11,540 bases of DNA from a virus (lineage: Duplodnaviria; Heunggongvirae; Uroviricota; Caudoviricetes): positions 1-11,540 of IMG/VR virus record IMGVR_UViG_3300029762_000045. The stretch is one strand, 5' to 3'. The translations under genes and the position numbers were made by a program. Shown here one piece after another: positions 2,632-10,120 of this stretch. A model generated the notes under the pieces. It was given only the letters and a program-made list of their open reading frames with translations. It did not search any database and was not told the DNA's origin. How positions within the stretch are numbered: the stretch's first letter is position 1; the number at the start of each line of letters is the position of its first letter.

Positions 2632-3131
2632 TATTCGCTCCCGTTATCGCAAGGTTCCTTCCGGTGGAAGTAATTCCAACCGTTCCACTTCGCCAACTGG
2701 TTACCGCTACCAACAGGCATACGGTTTGGATAACCGGACTTACATTTAGCGGCTTTTGCTCTGTCCATTGCAGACAGTTTGACGAGTCGCTCTTTCCCAT
2801 ATCTGGCAGTGGTTATAAGTTTTGCTGACGCTTCCAGCGCATAATCTGGAGCAATGCGGCAGGCAAGGTTGAAAATGACGGCATTGATAGCGTTATTTGA
2901 CAAACCGTGCTCATCGCCAGGATCCGGAGCGACATCTGCATCAGCAAAAATGTAGCCAACGTTGATACCAGGTGACGCATCACCGCCAAGCCATTCAGCC
3001 ATCATCATTTCAAGGTCGTTGACGCCGTCTTCCATAGACTGCGGTTCGACATCGGTTAACGTGGCATTTGATGCCACACCGAGCTTACGTAATGCCGCAA
3101 GAACTAAATCACCCTTCGTTGTCAGGTTCAT
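2631..3131 (-). CDS. 4: Tail adaptor / head completion protein (P22 gp4 homolog)
   Basis: Start chosen at the internal Met ([33 protein letters not shown]...), which aligns with the P22 gp4 N-terminus [33 protein letters not shown] as I recall it and gives 166 aa. An AAGGCGG Shine-Dalgarno-like motif lies upstream. The longer ORF start at 3197 would overlap the upstream gene further. Confidence 0.88.
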
Positions 3132-3702
3132 CTGCTGCCGCCTTAGGTTTTCGACTAGGCTTTTTACGCTGTTTTTCTTCTGGCTCTGGCTCTGCAATAG
3201 CCGGACGCAAACTCAGGAGTCGTCCAAGAACATCATTTGCTTCATGGCCATCCCACTCTTTCCCGAACTCAAGCTCAGTACCTTCAGGAAGGAACTCGAT
3301 TTCTTCAACAGGTAGGTGATAAGTGATTTCGCCTTCTGGAGTGGTGATACCAGCAATGATCCAGCCATCCCACTCTTCACCGTCACTGTGTTTGCGAGAC
3401 CACCACGAAAGCTCAGCGTAAGCATGCATCAGCGATGAGAAGAGGCGCACTCGGTGAGCGTAAAGCTCGTTAAAAGTGTGATAACCGTCGGACACTTCGC
3501 CCATATCAACTGGGGAAGTTTCACCTCCGCCAACACTCCCAATTTGATCACCAACAAGAGGATCATCAGGAACATCGTCAGGGTGCTTATACCAGCCATT
3601 TGATAAGTGCACAGCTACATCATCAGGATCAACGGTTTTCGTTTTCAGCTTGCGCCCCCAGATTTTGGTATCTCCGCCAGCCTGAAAAATCATTACGCTC
3701 AT
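3109..3702 (-). CDS. Hypothetical protein, 197 aa, acidic and Trp/Asp/Pro-rich with a Lys/Pro-rich C-terminal tail; extra gene between coat and gp4
   Basis: Open frame with ATG at 3700-3702 preceded by GGAGAT 6 nt upstream, beginning [19 protein letters not shown]. The listed ORF extends to 3882 but that portion overlaps the coat gene and lacks a start signal. The 3' end overlaps the gp4 start by 23 nt. No family recognised. Confidence 0.7.
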
Positions 3703-3711
3703 TGGTATCTC

Positions 3712-3740
3712 CAATAGAAAAGGGAGCCGAAGCTCCCTCT
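3712..3740 (-). terminator. Intrinsic terminator-like hairpin immediately downstream of the coat gene
   Basis: Minus-strand RNA reads AGGGAGC-UUCG-GCUCCCU (7-bp GC-rich stem extendable to 9 bp, UUCG tetraloop) followed by UUUUCUAUU. It lies between the coat stop (3746) and the next start (3702). Confidence 0.55.
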
Positions 3741-3745
3741 GGTTA

Positions 3746-5041
3746 TCACGCAGTCTGGTTAGGCAGACCAACACCAATTGCCTCTGGTCGTACAGCACAT
3801 GCTGAATACCACACAGCAATACGGCACTTACCAGACAGAGTGTTGATATCACCCTGCGTTGCGAAGATGCCGTTAACACCAATGCCAGGAATGCTGAAGG
3901 AAGACGTTTTCATGCCAGCAAACAGTTCATGGGTTACCGGGATCGGCTGAGACAGCAGACGGATTGAGTCATCAGCCCAGAACACGTTAGCGGTGGTTGT
4001 TGCCACGTTCAGAACGTTTACCGGAGTGGTATCAGCAAGAGAGGTGTTTACGTTAGCGTAAGCCTTCTCTTCTTTTGTCAGTGACGCGTCATCCAGTGCA
4101 ATCGGCTTCGGCGTGATTTCGATGTGAGTACCATCGATCACACGGGTGATTGAGAAAGTCGCATCATCAGTCAGCACGTTCTTCGCCATCTGAGACAGGA
4201 ATTTCACACCAGTGAAGCTGATTTTGTCGCCGCGCTTAAATCCGGTGGTGGAGGATACGGTCACCGTTGCAACACGGTTGTCGACGTTCTCCTTGTTACC
4301 ATCGGTATCAAGGGTGTATGCCTGCGGCTTAAACTTCTGCGCTCCAGTCACAGTTACACCAGTAGCGGTTGACTTAGTAACTGCCGGAAGTTTCGGTGAG
4401 CGAAGAATTTCATCAAAGCCAGCAATCTGACGCTGAATAGTACCGTTGCGATACGCTTCTTCAGGAACGCGCCCAAAGATGTCACCATCTACCAGGTTGC
4501 GGCCTGCTTTGCGGTAATCGTCAGGGTTCAGGAAGTAACTGATGCCCATATCGCGGTTTAGCTCACGGGAGAACATCAGGCGCTCTGCATCAGACACAAA
4601 ATCCCAGCCAGACAGGCCAGTAGATGGACCAATTGCGCGGGTATCGTGAACAACAAGTGAGCCCATTTCGGTTGCCTGTTTGGCAATTGCTGACTCAATG
4701 TTATTCGCCAGTTTTTTGGCGGATGCCTGGATGCGGCGACGGTAAGAACGCTCATCACGCAGGTCATCTGCACGAAGCTCGAAGAAATCGTTATCCGGAT
4801 CACCCATGTTGCATTTCACGGAGAGTTCCAGAATCCCGGTTGCGTTGCCAGTTAAATCCCAGCCAGTCTGGGTTGGAGCTTCCTGCTCAACAGGCATCCA
4901 CACGGTGTTGCTTGAACGCTGCATGGATTCTGCCGGAGGGGTGTATTTTGTCACTTTGGACGCCATTGGCGTCAGGTTCTGGACGGTTTCGATGATTTCA
5001 TCCAGAGCATACGTGACCAGTTGACCTTCATTTAATGCCAT
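3746..5041 (-). CDS. 5: Major capsid (coat) protein (P22 gp5 homolog)
   Basis: 431-aa ORF starting [20 protein letters not shown], with high identity along its length to P22 coat protein as I recall it. Start overlaps the scaffold stop (TAATG). Confidence 0.95.
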
Positions 5042-5952
5042 TATCGAATTCCTTTATTCAGTTGCGCCTTAAGCTTGCGGTACGTCTCTACATCCCCTTT
5101 GTTTGCTGCCGCCTCCATCTGCTTTTCAATCGCAGAGATATTTGCAGCAACAGCATGTCCCTGAATGGGTTCATCAGGTAACGGGGCTTCTGAAACAGGC
5201 TTGGCTCTAGGCTTGAGAGTTAAACGCTCTGACAGTCGAGTGAGTTCAATCAGCGCTGATTGCCCGTCCATCGCCAGCAACTGGCGTGTTTTCTCAGGAT
5301 TAGCACCAAGGTGATACATGAGAGCGGCGGATTTCTCCGGGAAGAGGCGCATGATGTCGGCACCGACTGCTGGCGGCACCAGTTGCATGAATGCATCCTC
5401 TTTCTCCTGATAGTCAGGGATATTGAGCTTTTCCGCTGCGTCGTAGTGCTTACGGGCTGCCTCGACGTATTGCGCTGATTGCTGGGTGAACTCCTGAGTT
5501 TTGCGACCCTGCTCGGCAACAGCCTGGCTTCGTGCGTCCATAGCCTTGATCTGCCATTCACTGTTTGCCTTCTGGAAGGCAGCCAGTGCGCGGCTCTGGT
5601 CATAGTCGTACTTAGCCAGTGCATCTTCGGAAAGATAATCGTTAGGGTCTGGTTGTTTTGGTAACTCAGGGTTCACCCGCAGGTGCTCCGGCAACTCTCC
5701 ACGCTTAACCGCTTCCATCTGCTGCTCAAGCTCACGCTGGCGTTTGCGTTCGATGCGGCGACGGGCAAATTCAGCATTAGTTGCCGGGTCTTGTTTTGGT
5801 TTCTCATCGTCTTTCAGGACAATCTCGAAGCCTTCTTCCTGACCTGCGTTGTCGTTGGCATTATCGACAACTAAGCCATCAGCAGATGCCGCTGCATGAT
5901 TGCCGGGCAGGGTTAATTCTTCAGAAGCCTGAATGTCGGTGGTTTGGTCCAT
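5041..5952 (-). CDS. 8: Scaffolding protein (P22 gp8 homolog)
   Basis: 303-aa ORF, the same length as P22 gp8, with recognisable similarity ([21 protein letters not shown]..., C-terminal ...[11 protein letters not shown]...). Sits between portal and coat. Confidence 0.95.
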
Positions 5953-5965
5953 GATTAACTCTCTC

Positions 5966-8131
5966 TTATTGAGGTGTCTCGGCTACTCCGCCGGAGGGGA
6001 TTTGAACTTGACGCATAAGATTCGCGAAATCCATGCGTTGTGAATGAGTCTGGTCTGCATCTTTAAGAAGCAGCTCAGCGTTAGCACGAGCATCTTTGCT
6101 GCGCTGTTGCTGGAATTGACCTACGAGCTTGAGGTACTCACGCAGTTCTGCCTGCTTGTCGAGGTCCATATTGTTGAAGATTTCTGCAATCTTCGCGGCG
6201 TTGAGTTGGTTTTGGGCTTCAACCTTGGCAGCTTCAACCTGAATCTGCGCCTGTTGGTTCTCTGCCTTGAGCAATTCAGCCTGACCTTGCAGAAGGATAC
6301 CCTGCGCCTGAATTTGCTCTGCTGATGGCTGCTGCGGCTGTTGTTGTGCCTGCTGTACCATCTCCATCTCTTCAGGTGTTTCTGGTTTCTTCAGCCCCAT
6401 CATCACCAGTTGCTTGTTCGCGTACTCTCGCATCATCTCGACGCCTTTGCCGTCAAGCAGCGTGAAGTATTGCAGCATCAGCATCTGGAACTCTGGAGTA
6501 CCTTGCGGAACCTTGGTGAGCAACTCCTGAATCTCTGCGCGGTTCTGTTCCTTCATGCTCTGGAAGGATGGTCCGACGTCTGTATAGCACTCATAGCGAC
6601 CGCGAATGTCGTTGAGTGTGACCACATTGCCGGACTGGTAATCGACAACTTGCGCATAGAGTTGAACGTCTTTCTCGCTTCCATCTTCAAGTGTCAGCGT
6701 TACATGACGAGGAACGTCATAAATATCGTTGACCATTGAGGCATAAATCTCGCCATCACGTCGCATTGCGGTAGCCAGGTTATCCTGAAACACGTATGTC
6801 TCAAGGTCTGCCCGCATGTTCAGTTGATTGACGGTATCGAAAGCGACCTGACCATTTGCCGCCTGCGCATCCACGCCAAGACTAGCCACCTCTTTCACTG
6901 CGTTGGTGGCAGCCTCAAGCATGTAAGCGTTGGCTTGCGGCACTTCAGGGTTTTCCATGTAGGAGATTGGACCAATCGGCAGGTCGTTACCGTTTTCATC
7001 GGCCTTGTTCTGCAGATAGTACGGATAGTCATCATTTCCACCGTACATATATTCGTAGCCTTCGATTTGCTCAGGGAAGAAGGTAGGTTTCTTCTTCGGT
7101 GAACGAGCAACAATATCGGCGTTGAACGACATAATCATGTTACGAAGGCGCTGACCGTCTTTCGTCAGCCTTACCACTCCTTCGTAGCACTCCTTGTCAC
7201 CAGCGAATGACCATTCGCCATACACTGGAACGATTGGGATATGCTCTCCAGCTATCTTCTCGCGGTCTTTCAGTATCTGCGTGCAGGTGACGATCGACTT
7301 ATACACACGCCGACGCTTCACCTTGCGCTCTGCTACCTTAATGAATCCACGATTAGCCAGGTCGTCGATGACGTCTTTGATATCCTGCTGGTAATAGCTG
7401 ACCGGCTCGCCTGTCAGCGGGTCGCGGTAGATGAAGACCTTCTCCTTCTTCTCTTCTACCTCGTAATACTCAGCGACGTAGACGACATCATTCGACACCC
7501 ACGGGAATAGCCATGTATCGTTAGGATTCTGGAAAGATGGCAAGGTATCCGGGTCAATACCGTAATCCTCTGCGAACTCTTTCCAGCCATTGCGCGACAA
7601 GGCGTTAATCACCGTGCAATGCTTAGCGTCGCTCTTATCCATCTGCTTGCTGTTGGCGTCCCATATAACGTGTGAGCAAGCTTCATGGATTGGCAGGCGT
7701 CGGATTACCTGATTGTTGCTTGTTGGGTCGTTGTCTTCGTACTGCGTGACCAGACGCCATGCACCAACGCCGGACTCTATCTGCTCACGAACGCCAACGT
7801 TAACGGCAATTTTTGCCGTGTTATGGCGCATATCAGTACGATACATCCCCATCAGCACATCGGCAGCATCAGGATTAGCGCCGTCTTTTGGTCTGAAGAG
7901 AACGTCGATAGGGTTCCGGCGCATCTCTGCGACCAGCTTCCTGACCACCGGGCGGACAACATCGAATTGTCCGCGATATTGCAGGGTGGTGTAGTTTGAT
8001 AGCCAGTCATCCCATTGCGACACTCGGCTAAAATACAGGTCATTTGTCGCCTCGGTTCTGGCTTCATCGCTCGCCATCCAGTCTGCGTCAAACTTACACA
8101 GAATGGAATTGAGTCTGTTTTCGTCGGCCAT
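5966..8131 (-). CDS. 1: Portal protein (P22 gp1 homolog)
   Basis: 721-aa ORF (P22 portal is about 725 aa) with a Gln-rich C-terminal helical region typical of the P22 portal barrel. Immediately follows the large terminase. Confidence 0.95.
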
Positions 8132-9631
8132 TTAAGTTCTCCGTGCGATGGGCCTGATTGGGGCTGGTATCTTTTTCTCTTTTGGCTTTTTGATGTCGCG
8201 CATCATTTTTGCGAAGCGGCGCATCATGTATGCATAGCGAACGGCGGATAGCACGTCGTCGTTAAGCTTGACGATTTTCCCGTTTTCATCACGGTGATAG
8301 AGGCGGAACTCCTCAAAGAATGGCTCACAGGTGTTGAATACTTTGAAGCGACCGTCGAGCATCATGTCTCGCAATTCAGTGATGCCAGGCTCAACAGCAT
8401 TACCGCCATCAGGCCATGTCGCATGCTCCTGCAACATCATAAAACCAGCGTCCGCGTACTGCCATTTGAGCTGCTCACCGCCGCCCTTCTCGTGCTGGTT
8501 TCCGTCATGAGGCCATGCGGTTGGCACTTTATGCGCCCATGATTTAACGGCTCCCCATGCCTGAACGGCTGTTTTTTCTTTCGCCTTCCAAACGCGTGAA
8601 AGGTAGATTATGTCTGCGTCCTTATCCCACCAAAGCTGAACCTGCGCCTGTGGGTGATCCCATCCGAAATCCATCCCGCCAATTACGTAGAAGTGATCAG
8701 GACACTCGAACGGCTGACACTTAATTGTCTCTTCCGGTATCTGGAAGATTCGACCACTACCCATCGTAGGAATACCGCGAGCACGCGCCTCTCTCTCATG
8801 CTCAGGATAGGATGCGATGATTTGCTCTTTCTGCTCGTCGGTGTAGTGCTCAGCGTCATAGATGGTCATGTTGACCACTTTCTGCGACTTGCTGGGATTC
8901 TTCAGGAACTTGGTAACAACGTCAGACATCCCCATCAGCGGGGTAAACGTCAGAATTGAGAATTGCCCGTATTTGTTGGTACGGGTAAGACCTTCGCCAT
9001 AAATGCTGTATGGTGGCTCTTCGTCAAACCACACGCCGTGGATTGTGTCACCCTGCCAGCGAGCGCGGCCTTGCGAGTATGGTTTGAAGTAGCAGATTGA
9101 AATGCCATCTTCAACGCCATCAGCCGTGTGATGCTTAACCAGAAGATGATCAACAAGGTTCGGAAAGAAAGGAGACTTCTTCCAGCTAATGATGTCTTCT
9201 TTAGGTATGGAACCGTAGCCTGGCTCATCATTCTCTTCGATACGACCACACAGGATGCGTTGAGTCGTTTTGGTTACAGTCTCGTTTGTCTCGCCGCCAA
9301 TCCAGAAGACAACAGGCTCATAGAAACGCTTACCTTTCCACTCCCCACCATATTTACCATCAGCCGGATAGCCTTTTGTTCCCGGATAACGCCCGGTAAG
9401 GTGAAACGCGACTTCAGCAGCCCCAGTAAATGACTTACCAAGCTGGTTACCAGCCATAAAACAGCGCTCTGGATAGTCATGCCCGGCGTCGATGAACTCA
9501 CGCTGTTTGCTGTATGGCGTAAATTCATATAGCAGGTGTGTGTTCCGGTAGTTCTCTTCTTCTTCGAGTAGCTCGAGCAATTCGATTTGCTCTTCGTCGC
9601 TCAGGTTATCAAGAATCGCGTCCAGTTCCAC
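8132..9631 (-). CDS. 2: Terminase large subunit (P22 gp2 homolog)
   Basis: 499-aa ORF, the same length as P22 gp2, starting [28 protein letters not shown]. Overlaps the 3' end of the small terminase by 23 nt. Confidence 0.95.
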
Positions 9632-10097
9632 GGTTGAATAGCTCCTTGATACGAGAGCGTCGCTTATCGCGATCTCCCTTATCAGGTGTCACGTCTTCAA
9701 CTTGCGACTGCTCTTTGAGGCCCAAATCACGGGCGATGATGTTAGCGTTGAGAAGGTCAGCGGCTGCGCCAGAGAATTTCTGGTCGTAGATGACCTGCTC
9801 TGCTCGCGTAACGACTTCAGATAAATCTTCTCGCAGGCGATATGTGCGCCATGTTTCAAGCGTCACATCAATGAACAGAGTGAGGCCTGTAATAGTCATC
9901 GCTCGCATCTTGGCGATAGGCTCTTGTATCACTTCACCCTGATACGAGAACGCCTTCATCTCCCATAGCGGGTTAGCTTCTACCCACTCGAAGTATTCAC
10001 AACAAGCAGCCCACAGCGCCTCAGGCGATTCGAATTTAGGATTTCGCCCATGACTACTGCGGGCCTCCCAAAATCGGTTGCCCTTTGGTGCTGCCAT
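9609..10097 (-). CDS. 3: Terminase small subunit (P22 gp3 homolog)
   Basis: [50 protein letters not shown]... is essentially the P22 gp3 sequence. Start placed at the second ATG to give 162 aa as in P22; the ORF track begins two codons earlier (MNM, 10103). Confidence 0.93.
9805..9830 (-). other. pac site (headful packaging initiation site) inside the small terminase gene
   Basis: Minus strand reads GAAGATTTATCTGAAGTCGTTACGCG, encoding gp3 residues EDLSEVVTR. This matches the P22 pac sequence as I remember it (about 22 bp, GAAGAtTTATCTGAAGTCGTTA), at the expected place in gene 3. Confidence 0.7.
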
Positions 10098-10120
10098 ATT
10101 CATCTCACTTAATTGTCATT

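Follow-up and report, generated by a model that had tools for sequence, protein, structure and literature searches.

A WDGH-domain cassette in the junction gene between coat and gene 4 of P22-like phages and its possible role in counter-defence

Background

Phages L and ST64T carry between their coat gene and gene 4 a gene, orf186, which is gene 6 of epsilon34 and g341c and ORF54 of ST104. The phage L genome paper lists orf186 as 'detailed function unknown' and does not put it among the virion components; it was the only relevant paper in the literature searched for orf69/orf186. P22 has a shorter gene, ORF69, in the same slot. The subject here is the gene at this position, called the junction gene below, in the virus of IMG/VR record IMGVR_UViG_3300029762_000045; the window is the whole stretch of 11,540 nucleotides (nt) that was analysed. 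The gene encodes a protein of 197 residues that matches only one Pfam family, WDGH (PF25311). It is known already, having been annotated as orf186 since the ST64T and L sequences and having a Pfam name.

Tad2 (PF11195), Sequestin (PF21825) and Acb2/Tad1 are small phage accessory domains that stand alone or are strung together, and fusions of the WDGH domain with them are known in several arrangements. Late structural proteins are the trigger of several signalling defence systems. TIR-derived cyclic ADP-ribose (cADPR) signals are sequestered by Tad2 and Sequestin, both verified sponges; Sequestin was found through its fusion to Tad2 and Acb4, and was then verified as a 3'cADPR sponge (bioRxiv 10.1101/2025.07.12.664507). 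Among the signal-degrading enzymes Acb1, Apyc1 and Acb5, the residues that matter in Acb5 are W38, R10 and H61 (bioRxiv 10.1101/2025.07.12.664507).

Results and discussion

A long allele of a small gene of P22-like phages

By alignment, every P22-like phage has a small gene between coat and gene 4, and the junction gene of the window is its long allele, belonging to a known family (Pfam WDGH; Orf186/ORF69) instead of being a new insertion. A sequence-only reading of the window, made from the letters without database searches, had taken it for an extra gene. Judged from the same comparisons, what is extra is an optional in-frame WDGH cassette of about 100 residues within an acidic Pro/Glu linker, present in a minority of phages. 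The premise that gene 4 directly follows gene 5 in P22 was mistaken, since ORF69 (69 residues) occupies the slot there. Of the claimed insertion, about 125 middle residues are indeed additional to P22, whereas the gene itself exists in P22. A P22 homologue at this junction, which that reading named as grounds for giving up an insertion, was thus found in part: ORF69 is homologous to the N-terminal 45 residues and the C-terminal tail.

The protein was also said to match nothing recognisable, which the searches contradict. It matches phrog_3769 over its full length (E=7e-100), it also matches phrog_1175 (E=3e-13), and its WDGH domain matches PF25311 with 134.8 bits (E=1.4e-39; model positions 1-97 of 97; gathering score 27 bits). 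The NCBI pipeline already names such genes 'WDGH domain-containing protein'. The family of the P22 protein and that of the long form recognise each other: ORF69 matches the long-form phrog_3769 over residues 1-45 (E=6e-9), and the first 50 residues of the window protein, searched by themselves, match the P22 family phrog_1175 (E=7e-9) as well as phrog_3769.

Protein and DNA alignments of the window with L, P22 and the E. coli phage APC_JM3.2 show that all four share the hairpin, the ribosome-binding site, the N-terminal module and the tail, and that only the window and L have the linker and WDGH domain. P22 ORF69 and the other short alleles (65-88 residues, phrog_1175; the slot of APC_JM3.2 holds an ORF (open reading frame) of 88 residues) have the same position, hairpin, ribosome-binding site, N-terminal mini-domain, basic tail and gene 4 overlap, and are without the WDGH domain and most of the linker. 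L Orf186 is the closest described protein. It lies in the same slot after the same terminator hairpin, has the same four parts, also belongs to phrog_3769, and is 62% identical to the window protein over residues 1-167 and 76-77% identical in the WDGH domain. The window protein differs from it in a longer linker, in an E. coli-type tail that is common to the APC_JM3.2 short allele, and in its E. coli prophage lineage.

The comparison across genomes proposed earlier bore out the expected polymorphism: among the complete E. coli genomes with the junction (n=217), 42 have the long allele and 173 a short one. Short and long alleles circulate in prophages of E. coli, Salmonella, Cronobacter, Serratia and Hafnia. 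In three short/long pairs (P0257/P0036, P0311/P0018 and P0278/P0043; P and L numbers are our handles for proteins and loci) the N-terminal modules are 67-89% identical and the tails nearly identical. A profile search with the N-terminal module found 373 protein clusters; no cargo other than WDGH was seen among the 120 matches listed, all of which are short forms of 47-86 residues. The comparison of N-terminal modules and of short and long alleles indicates several events of gain, loss or exchange of the cassette, the breakpoints lying in the Pro/Glu-rich linker. Since P22 is without the cassette, the WDGH domain is dispensable for the production of phage particles.

The E. coli short alleles carry a variable-length (Pro-Glu)n repeat at the cassette site (L003 3427-3477 in APC_JM3.2; P0285-P0371), in proteins of 74-86 residues. 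This repeat may be a substrate for recombination or slippage in gain and loss of the cassette. In a prophage of the E. coli strain CUVET17-972 (NZ_CP115370.1; L007 20297-20692) the junction is 99.2% identical to that of the window, and the annotation splits the WDGH gene into two pseudogene fragments. P0253 (63 residues) and P0264 (85 residues, with a frameshifted tail) look like broken L-type alleles. Read from such copies, the WDGH cassette decays in some lysogens.

Signals, architecture and selection

The gene itself was correctly described. The ORF of 594 bp runs on the minus strand from an ATG at 3702-3700 to a TGA at 3111-3109, between coat and gene 4, after the hairpin and with its 3' end overlapping the start of gene 4. 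The ribosome-binding site claimed for it, GGAGAT, is present at 3712-3707, 4 nt upstream of the ATG. So is the terminator-like hairpin after coat, GGGAGC-UUCG-GCUCCC at 3737-3722 followed by UUUUCUAUU at 3721-3713, which starts 8 nt past the coat stop codon (3748-3746). A 66-nt stretch with the hairpin folds at -20.3 kcal/mol (z = -2.36). The hairpin is kept in P22, L and APC_JM3.2 with a stem that is altered yet paired (GGGGC/GCCCC) in the four-phage DNA alignment, and the phage L record annotates the equivalent hairpin as a terminator. A simple terminator scan of positions 2900-4000 reported no site, though the hairpin GGGAGC-UUCG-GCUCCC with UUUUCUAU appears to satisfy its rules. The space between the coat gene and the ORF is 43 nt and no sigma-70-like promoter was found in it; the junction gene belongs to the late operon and follows the coat terminator.

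The composition is as had been noted, acidic (isoelectric point (pI) 4.68) with 7 Trp, 17 Asp and 14 Pro in 197 residues, and the motifs WDGW (residues 111-114), WDGH (150-153) and SWWSRKH (99-105) and the Lys/Pro-rich tail are all there. The protein has four parts (Table 1). The N-terminal mini-domain has the pattern M..G...W/G...GW..HP, with G9, G36-W37 and P41 invariant in the four-protein alignment. In the AlphaFold model its predicted local distance difference test (pLDDT) is 79-88, as for a folded unit separate from the WDGH domain. Linker residues 48-63 have a pLDDT below 50, and the WDGH domain reaches 94-97 in the full-length model and 93.7 in a model of the domain. Within WDGH, S71, D72, H75, T76, E79, H83, R84, W100, S102, H105, D107, Y128, H129, W150, D151, G152, H153 and R161 are near-invariant among 150 family representatives. 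Both signature motifs, W-D-G-H (150-153) and S71-D72-G73-Y74-H75-T76-F77...H83-R84 (SDGYHTF..LY.HR), are present in the window protein.

The end of the junction gene and the first 23 nt of gene 4 overlap in different frames, and P22 and L have the same design. Within the tail coding region lies the invariant decamer CCTAAGGCGG, whose AAGG stands 9 nt before the gene 4 ATG at 3131; the decamer is probably the Shine-Dalgarno sequence of gene 4.

Homologues that range in identity from 98% to about 53% keep the reading frame. In the comparison with phage L, the nonsynonymous divergence (dN) of the WDGH domain is 0.19 with synonymous sites saturated, and since dS is saturated the comparison is not expressed as a dN/dS ratio. 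From the kept frame and this low dN against saturated dS, the junction gene is real, and the pattern of substitution says that the WDGH cassette is under purifying selection.

Table 1. Coordinates of the junction gene, its parts and signals, and the other genes of the window
Feature	Position	Strand	Remarks
Junction gene, 197 residues + stop	3109-3702	minus	long (WDGH-bearing) allele of P22 ORF69 / L Orf186 family
N-terminal mini-domain, residues 1-45	3568-3702	minus	beta-hairpin, strand, helix; common to short alleles including P22 ORF69
Acidic Gly/Pro-rich disordered linker, residues 46-67	3502-3567	minus	left breakpoint region of WDGH insertion/deletion
WDGH domain, residues 68-165	3208-3501	minus	long helix, three strands, two short helices
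Disordered tail, Pro/Glu then Lys/Pro-rich, residues 166-197	3112-3207	minus	common to short alleles; right breakpoint region
Invariant decamer CCTAAGGCGG in tail coding region	3138-3147	minus	invariant columns, four-phage DNA alignment
Ribosome-binding site GGAGAT of junction gene	3707-3712	minus	purine-rich site there in 4/4 aligned phages
Terminator-like hairpin + U-rich tail	3713-3737	minus	sequence, fold, conservation
Small terminase	9609-10103	minus	
Large terminase	8132-9631	minus	
Portal	5966-8131	minus	
Scaffold	5041-5952	minus	
Coat protein gene, P22 gp5 homologue, 431 residues	3746-5041	minus	PF11651 P22_CoatProtein E=5e-166; upstream boundary of junction
Gene 4, head-to-tail adaptor (gp4), 166 residues	2631-3131	minus	PF11650 P22_Tail-4 E=1e-58; phrog_637
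gp10	1213-2631	minus	
Tail needle, 317 residues, Sf6-type knob	260-1213	minus	PF16532 E=2.5e-107

The WDGH family and its partners

The WDGH family is large (3653 cluster representatives at E<=1e-3, clustered at 50% identity) and occurs in phages of Listeria (P100-like), Bacillus (large), Streptococcus (pneumococcal), Lactococcus, Staphylococcus and Erwinia and in jumbo phages of Klebsiella and Serratia. About 27 positions are near-invariant across the 150 representatives, including 5 His, 3 Asp, 2 Arg, Ser, Tyr and Trp, and their conservation extends across bacterial phyla. In the PDB, sequence and profile searches gave nothing below E=0.1, and PARG and antibody matches there were weak and judged to be chance. 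Foldseek with the full-length model, a check that had been suggested, gave nothing below E=1 against the PDB. Foldseek against BFVD (viral predicted structures) gave other WDGH proteins only. NCBIfam had no matches to the window protein. PADLOC had none either, as expected of a library that models defence systems. By Pfam, the window protein is not a sequence member of the described sponge families Tad1, Tad2, Acb2, Acb4, Sequestin and Lockin. In the literature searched there was nothing relevant on WDGH, the WDGH domain or PF25311, and the supplements of the paper on Sequestin, Lockin and Acb5 (bioRxiv 10.1101/2025.07.12.664507) make no mention of WDGH or its motif. An identity of WDGH with Lockin or Acb5 was considered and rejected, as neither their descriptions nor their distribution among phages agrees with it and the motif is absent from the supplements of that preprint (Tal et al.). 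Five proteins (P0124, P0140, P0151, P0177 and P0238) have two separate WDGH matches each, apparently as tandem domains, an arrangement that could hint at a pseudo-dimeric function.

Pfam domains found with WDGH among the 150 representatives are Sequestin (PF21825) in 6, Lar restriction alleviation in 3, and one each of Tad2-like, Acb2/Tad1 hairpin, YodL, RNase_T (DEDD exonuclease) and DUF551. The order of domains varies: Tad2-WDGH-Sequestin in P0101, WDGH-Tad2 in P0208, Sequestin-WDGH in P0143, WDGH-Sequestin in P0077, P0083 and P0106, and Lar-WDGH-zinc ribbon in P0234. This variation indicates that the fusions arose independently. A Pfam scan of the other recurrent partner segments gave no matches. 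The N-terminus of P0106 ('KKPVVIEAFQF...GDWII...YPCKPDIF'), which looks similar to the Acb4 / N4 gp49 family, was not confirmed as such by Pfam and was not used. DUF4406 (nucleoside deoxyribosyltransferase-like) is fused to WDGH in L089.

Gene neighbourhoods add to the fusions. In L008, L016 and L017 the gene directly upstream of a WDGH-Sequestin gene is Tad2-like, and one IMG/VR locus has an Acb2/Tad1-hairpin protein as neighbour of the WDGH gene. The WDGH gene of L009 lies among three DNA methyltransferases. The triple fusion, too, is in the late operon in the Serratia prophage L006, where it stands between the lysis genes and terminase. The Tad2-like loci are a group of phage contigs of about 20-60 kilobases, in which the Tad2-like gene of about 295 residues and WDGH-Sequestin form a rightward operon beside repressor-type helix-turn-helix genes (L008 5071-6870; L016 and L017 4057-5786); it looks like a small anti-Thoeris gene pair. 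In Bacillus phage vB_BanS_Nate (L005 3845-5045) the WDGH gene gp134 overlaps the start of gp135, a NADAR-family gene, by 56 nt. NADAR proteins act on ADP-ribose adducts; the overlap fits an ADP-ribose/NAD theme and proves nothing. Streptococcus phage phiARI0285-2 (L004 3899-4294) encodes a WDGH protein of 131 residues between its portal and minor capsid (SPP1 gp7-like) genes, and such pneumococcal phages are a second, unrelated case of WDGH inside a head-assembly module.

A possible counter-defence role and its alternatives

The favoured explanation is that the WDGH domain is an accessory counter-defence module; taken generally, this proposal comes, on this evidence, somewhat short of an even chance. 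A more specific form of it is put forward tentatively: WDGH may be an undescribed counter-defence family, with a fold unlike solved structures, that sequesters or cleaves a nucleotide signal of host immunity, a TIR-derived ADP-ribose compound being the most plausible one, and P22-like phages may carry it as an exchangeable late head-module cassette made together with the triggering capsid proteins. The domain would most likely bind or hydrolyse a nucleotide-derived small molecule, whether a TIR or CD-NTase immune signal or another ADP-ribose/NAD-related compound, and if synthesised alongside the capsid proteins it would be present just as infection sets off such systems. The idea of a small molecule comes from the invariant polar and aromatic residues kept across phyla and from the ADP-ribose-related partners Tad2, Sequestin, Acb2/Tad1 and NADAR. 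The near-invariant polar and aromatic residues are more in keeping with a conserved site for a small molecule than with the binding of a single host protein. Acb1, Apyc1 and Acb5 offer a possible analogy in mode of action for a small domain with invariant His, Arg and Trp, although they have no sequence or fold similarity to WDGH. Fusion to and adjacency with known sponges, the pattern by which Sequestin was discovered, is found for the WDGH family, not for the window gene itself.

Several observations weigh against a counter-defence role, which rests on association. A recognised anti-defence partner is present in about 11 of the 150 representatives, and most of the others stand alone or are fused to uncharacterised segments. 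Since WDGH has no PADLOC, NCBIfam, PDB fold or sequence relative, its chemistry lacks an anchor. With a pI of 4.5 the domain is acidic, early expression is usual among known sponges whereas the junction gene is late, and some close E. coli copies are pseudogenes. The neighbours in 26 diverse IMG/VR loci are heterogeneous (glycosyltransferases, DnaB, dCMP deaminase, dUTPase, dNMP kinase, RecT) and would fit a role in nucleotide metabolism or a general early-accessory role equally well.

This last point leads to the chief alternative, that WDGH serves nucleotide metabolism or host takeover as an accessory enzyme or binder, for instance as a nucleotide hydrolase, and has no direct anti-immune role. 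The large number of invariant His, Asp and Arg points to catalysis or metal binding; dCMP deaminase, dUTPase, dNMP kinase, PAPS reductase and DnaB are among its neighbours in diverse phages; and it is fused to a DEDD exonuclease (P0240) and to DUF4406. However, most of the recognisable partners belong to anti-defence (Sequestin, Tad2, Lar, Acb2/Tad1), one would not expect to meet a housekeeping-type metabolic enzyme as an optional in-frame cassette of a head-module gene, and the PDB sequence, profile and fold searches found no similarity to known nucleotide enzymes. This alternative is considered unlikely, though it deserves to be taken seriously. The sequence-only reading had favoured a decoration or accessory virion protein, and the location of the gene inside the head-assembly module in the window and phage L, the position between portal and minor capsid genes in the pneumococcal phages, and its place in the late operon all speak for this. 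Mass spectrometry of phage L virion preparations also detected nine further phage proteins, unnamed in the main text (PMC8022706). That reading had supposed that phage L carries dec in the coat/gp4 slot. In fact dec (552-956 of AY795968) immediately precedes gene 3, and the slot holds Orf186, which the phage L paper treats as of unknown function and not as a virion component. Dec of phage L is, like the junction gene, an optional late gene of some P22-like phages, but the window has no dec homologue that could be found and the junction protein no similarity to Dec (BLASTP E=1.1). The WDGH domain is missing from P22 and from about 80% of the related E. coli prophages, and it also occurs in early operons, in jumbo phages and in fusions with cytoplasmic, non-structural sponge domains. 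The decoration reading was therefore rejected, and a virion role of any kind is rated very improbable.

Two further explanations are given hardly any weight. The junction ORF might serve only to couple translation of gene 4 and to space it from the coat terminator, with WDGH as a neutral or selfish passenger. Its 3' end with the invariant decamer and the gene 4 overlap, short alleles that hold little beyond the N-terminal module, a Pro/Glu repeat and the tail, and the frameshifted copies are what such a device would look like. Yet WDGH is strongly conserved (low dN against saturated dS, and 27 near-invariant positions), it is found in thousands of clusters in unrelated contexts, and the N-terminal module is itself predicted to be a folded, conserved mini-domain, so this explanation seems far-fetched. 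The sequence-only reading also named moron cargo, such as an anti-defence or superinfection exclusion gene, as its other option. Anti-defence cargo fits better than decoration, given the optional cassette and the anti-defence fusions, with the reserve that these are associations. The form in which the gene is expressed from the prophage and protects the lysogen, by superinfection exclusion or defence, is highly improbable: a ribosome-binding site of its own and a preceding terminator-like hairpin are often seen in morons, but neither a sigma-70-like promoter in the short intergenic space nor a PADLOC match was found, and many strictly lytic phages have WDGH, among them Listeria P100 and the jumbo phages of Bacillus and Klebsiella.

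The surrounding window and its relatives

All genes of the window are on the minus strand and the long ORFs form a P22-type late module (Table 1). Identity is highest, about 96%, to E. coli Lederbergviruses, for example APC_JM3.2 and IME10; to P22 it is about 81%. Near-identical junctions were found in E. coli prophages, one of them beside a tRNA-Arg gene next to yfdC, and the identical 197-residue protein is recorded from four metagenome-derived contigs. The 90%-identity cluster that holds the window protein has 1929 members, a number that does not count WDGH proteins because gp4 sequences are also in the cluster. In many database records gp4 is named 'recombinase RmuC', which looks like a propagated misannotation (e.g. 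L003 2879-3379).

The tail needle is a second mosaic difference between the window and P22 in this module. The window needle has a repetitive coiled-coil with 'ADHETRI...' repeats. The needle gene of P22 (gene 26) has just 702 bp (about 233 residues), and the APC_JM3.2 equivalent is of that shorter size.

Conclusions

As a genome feature the junction gene is ordinary. Its short and long alleles are natural isogenic pairs, which makes the function of the cassette directly testable. The WDGH domain is fused repeatedly to verified Thoeris and CBASS sponges, evidence like that which led to the discovery of Sequestin, and these fusions nominate a large and structurally unmatched phage domain family as an anti-defence candidate. 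If WDGH does act against defence, a widespread new family would be added to those described, and the slots of phage head modules would be shown to be able to carry such cargo.

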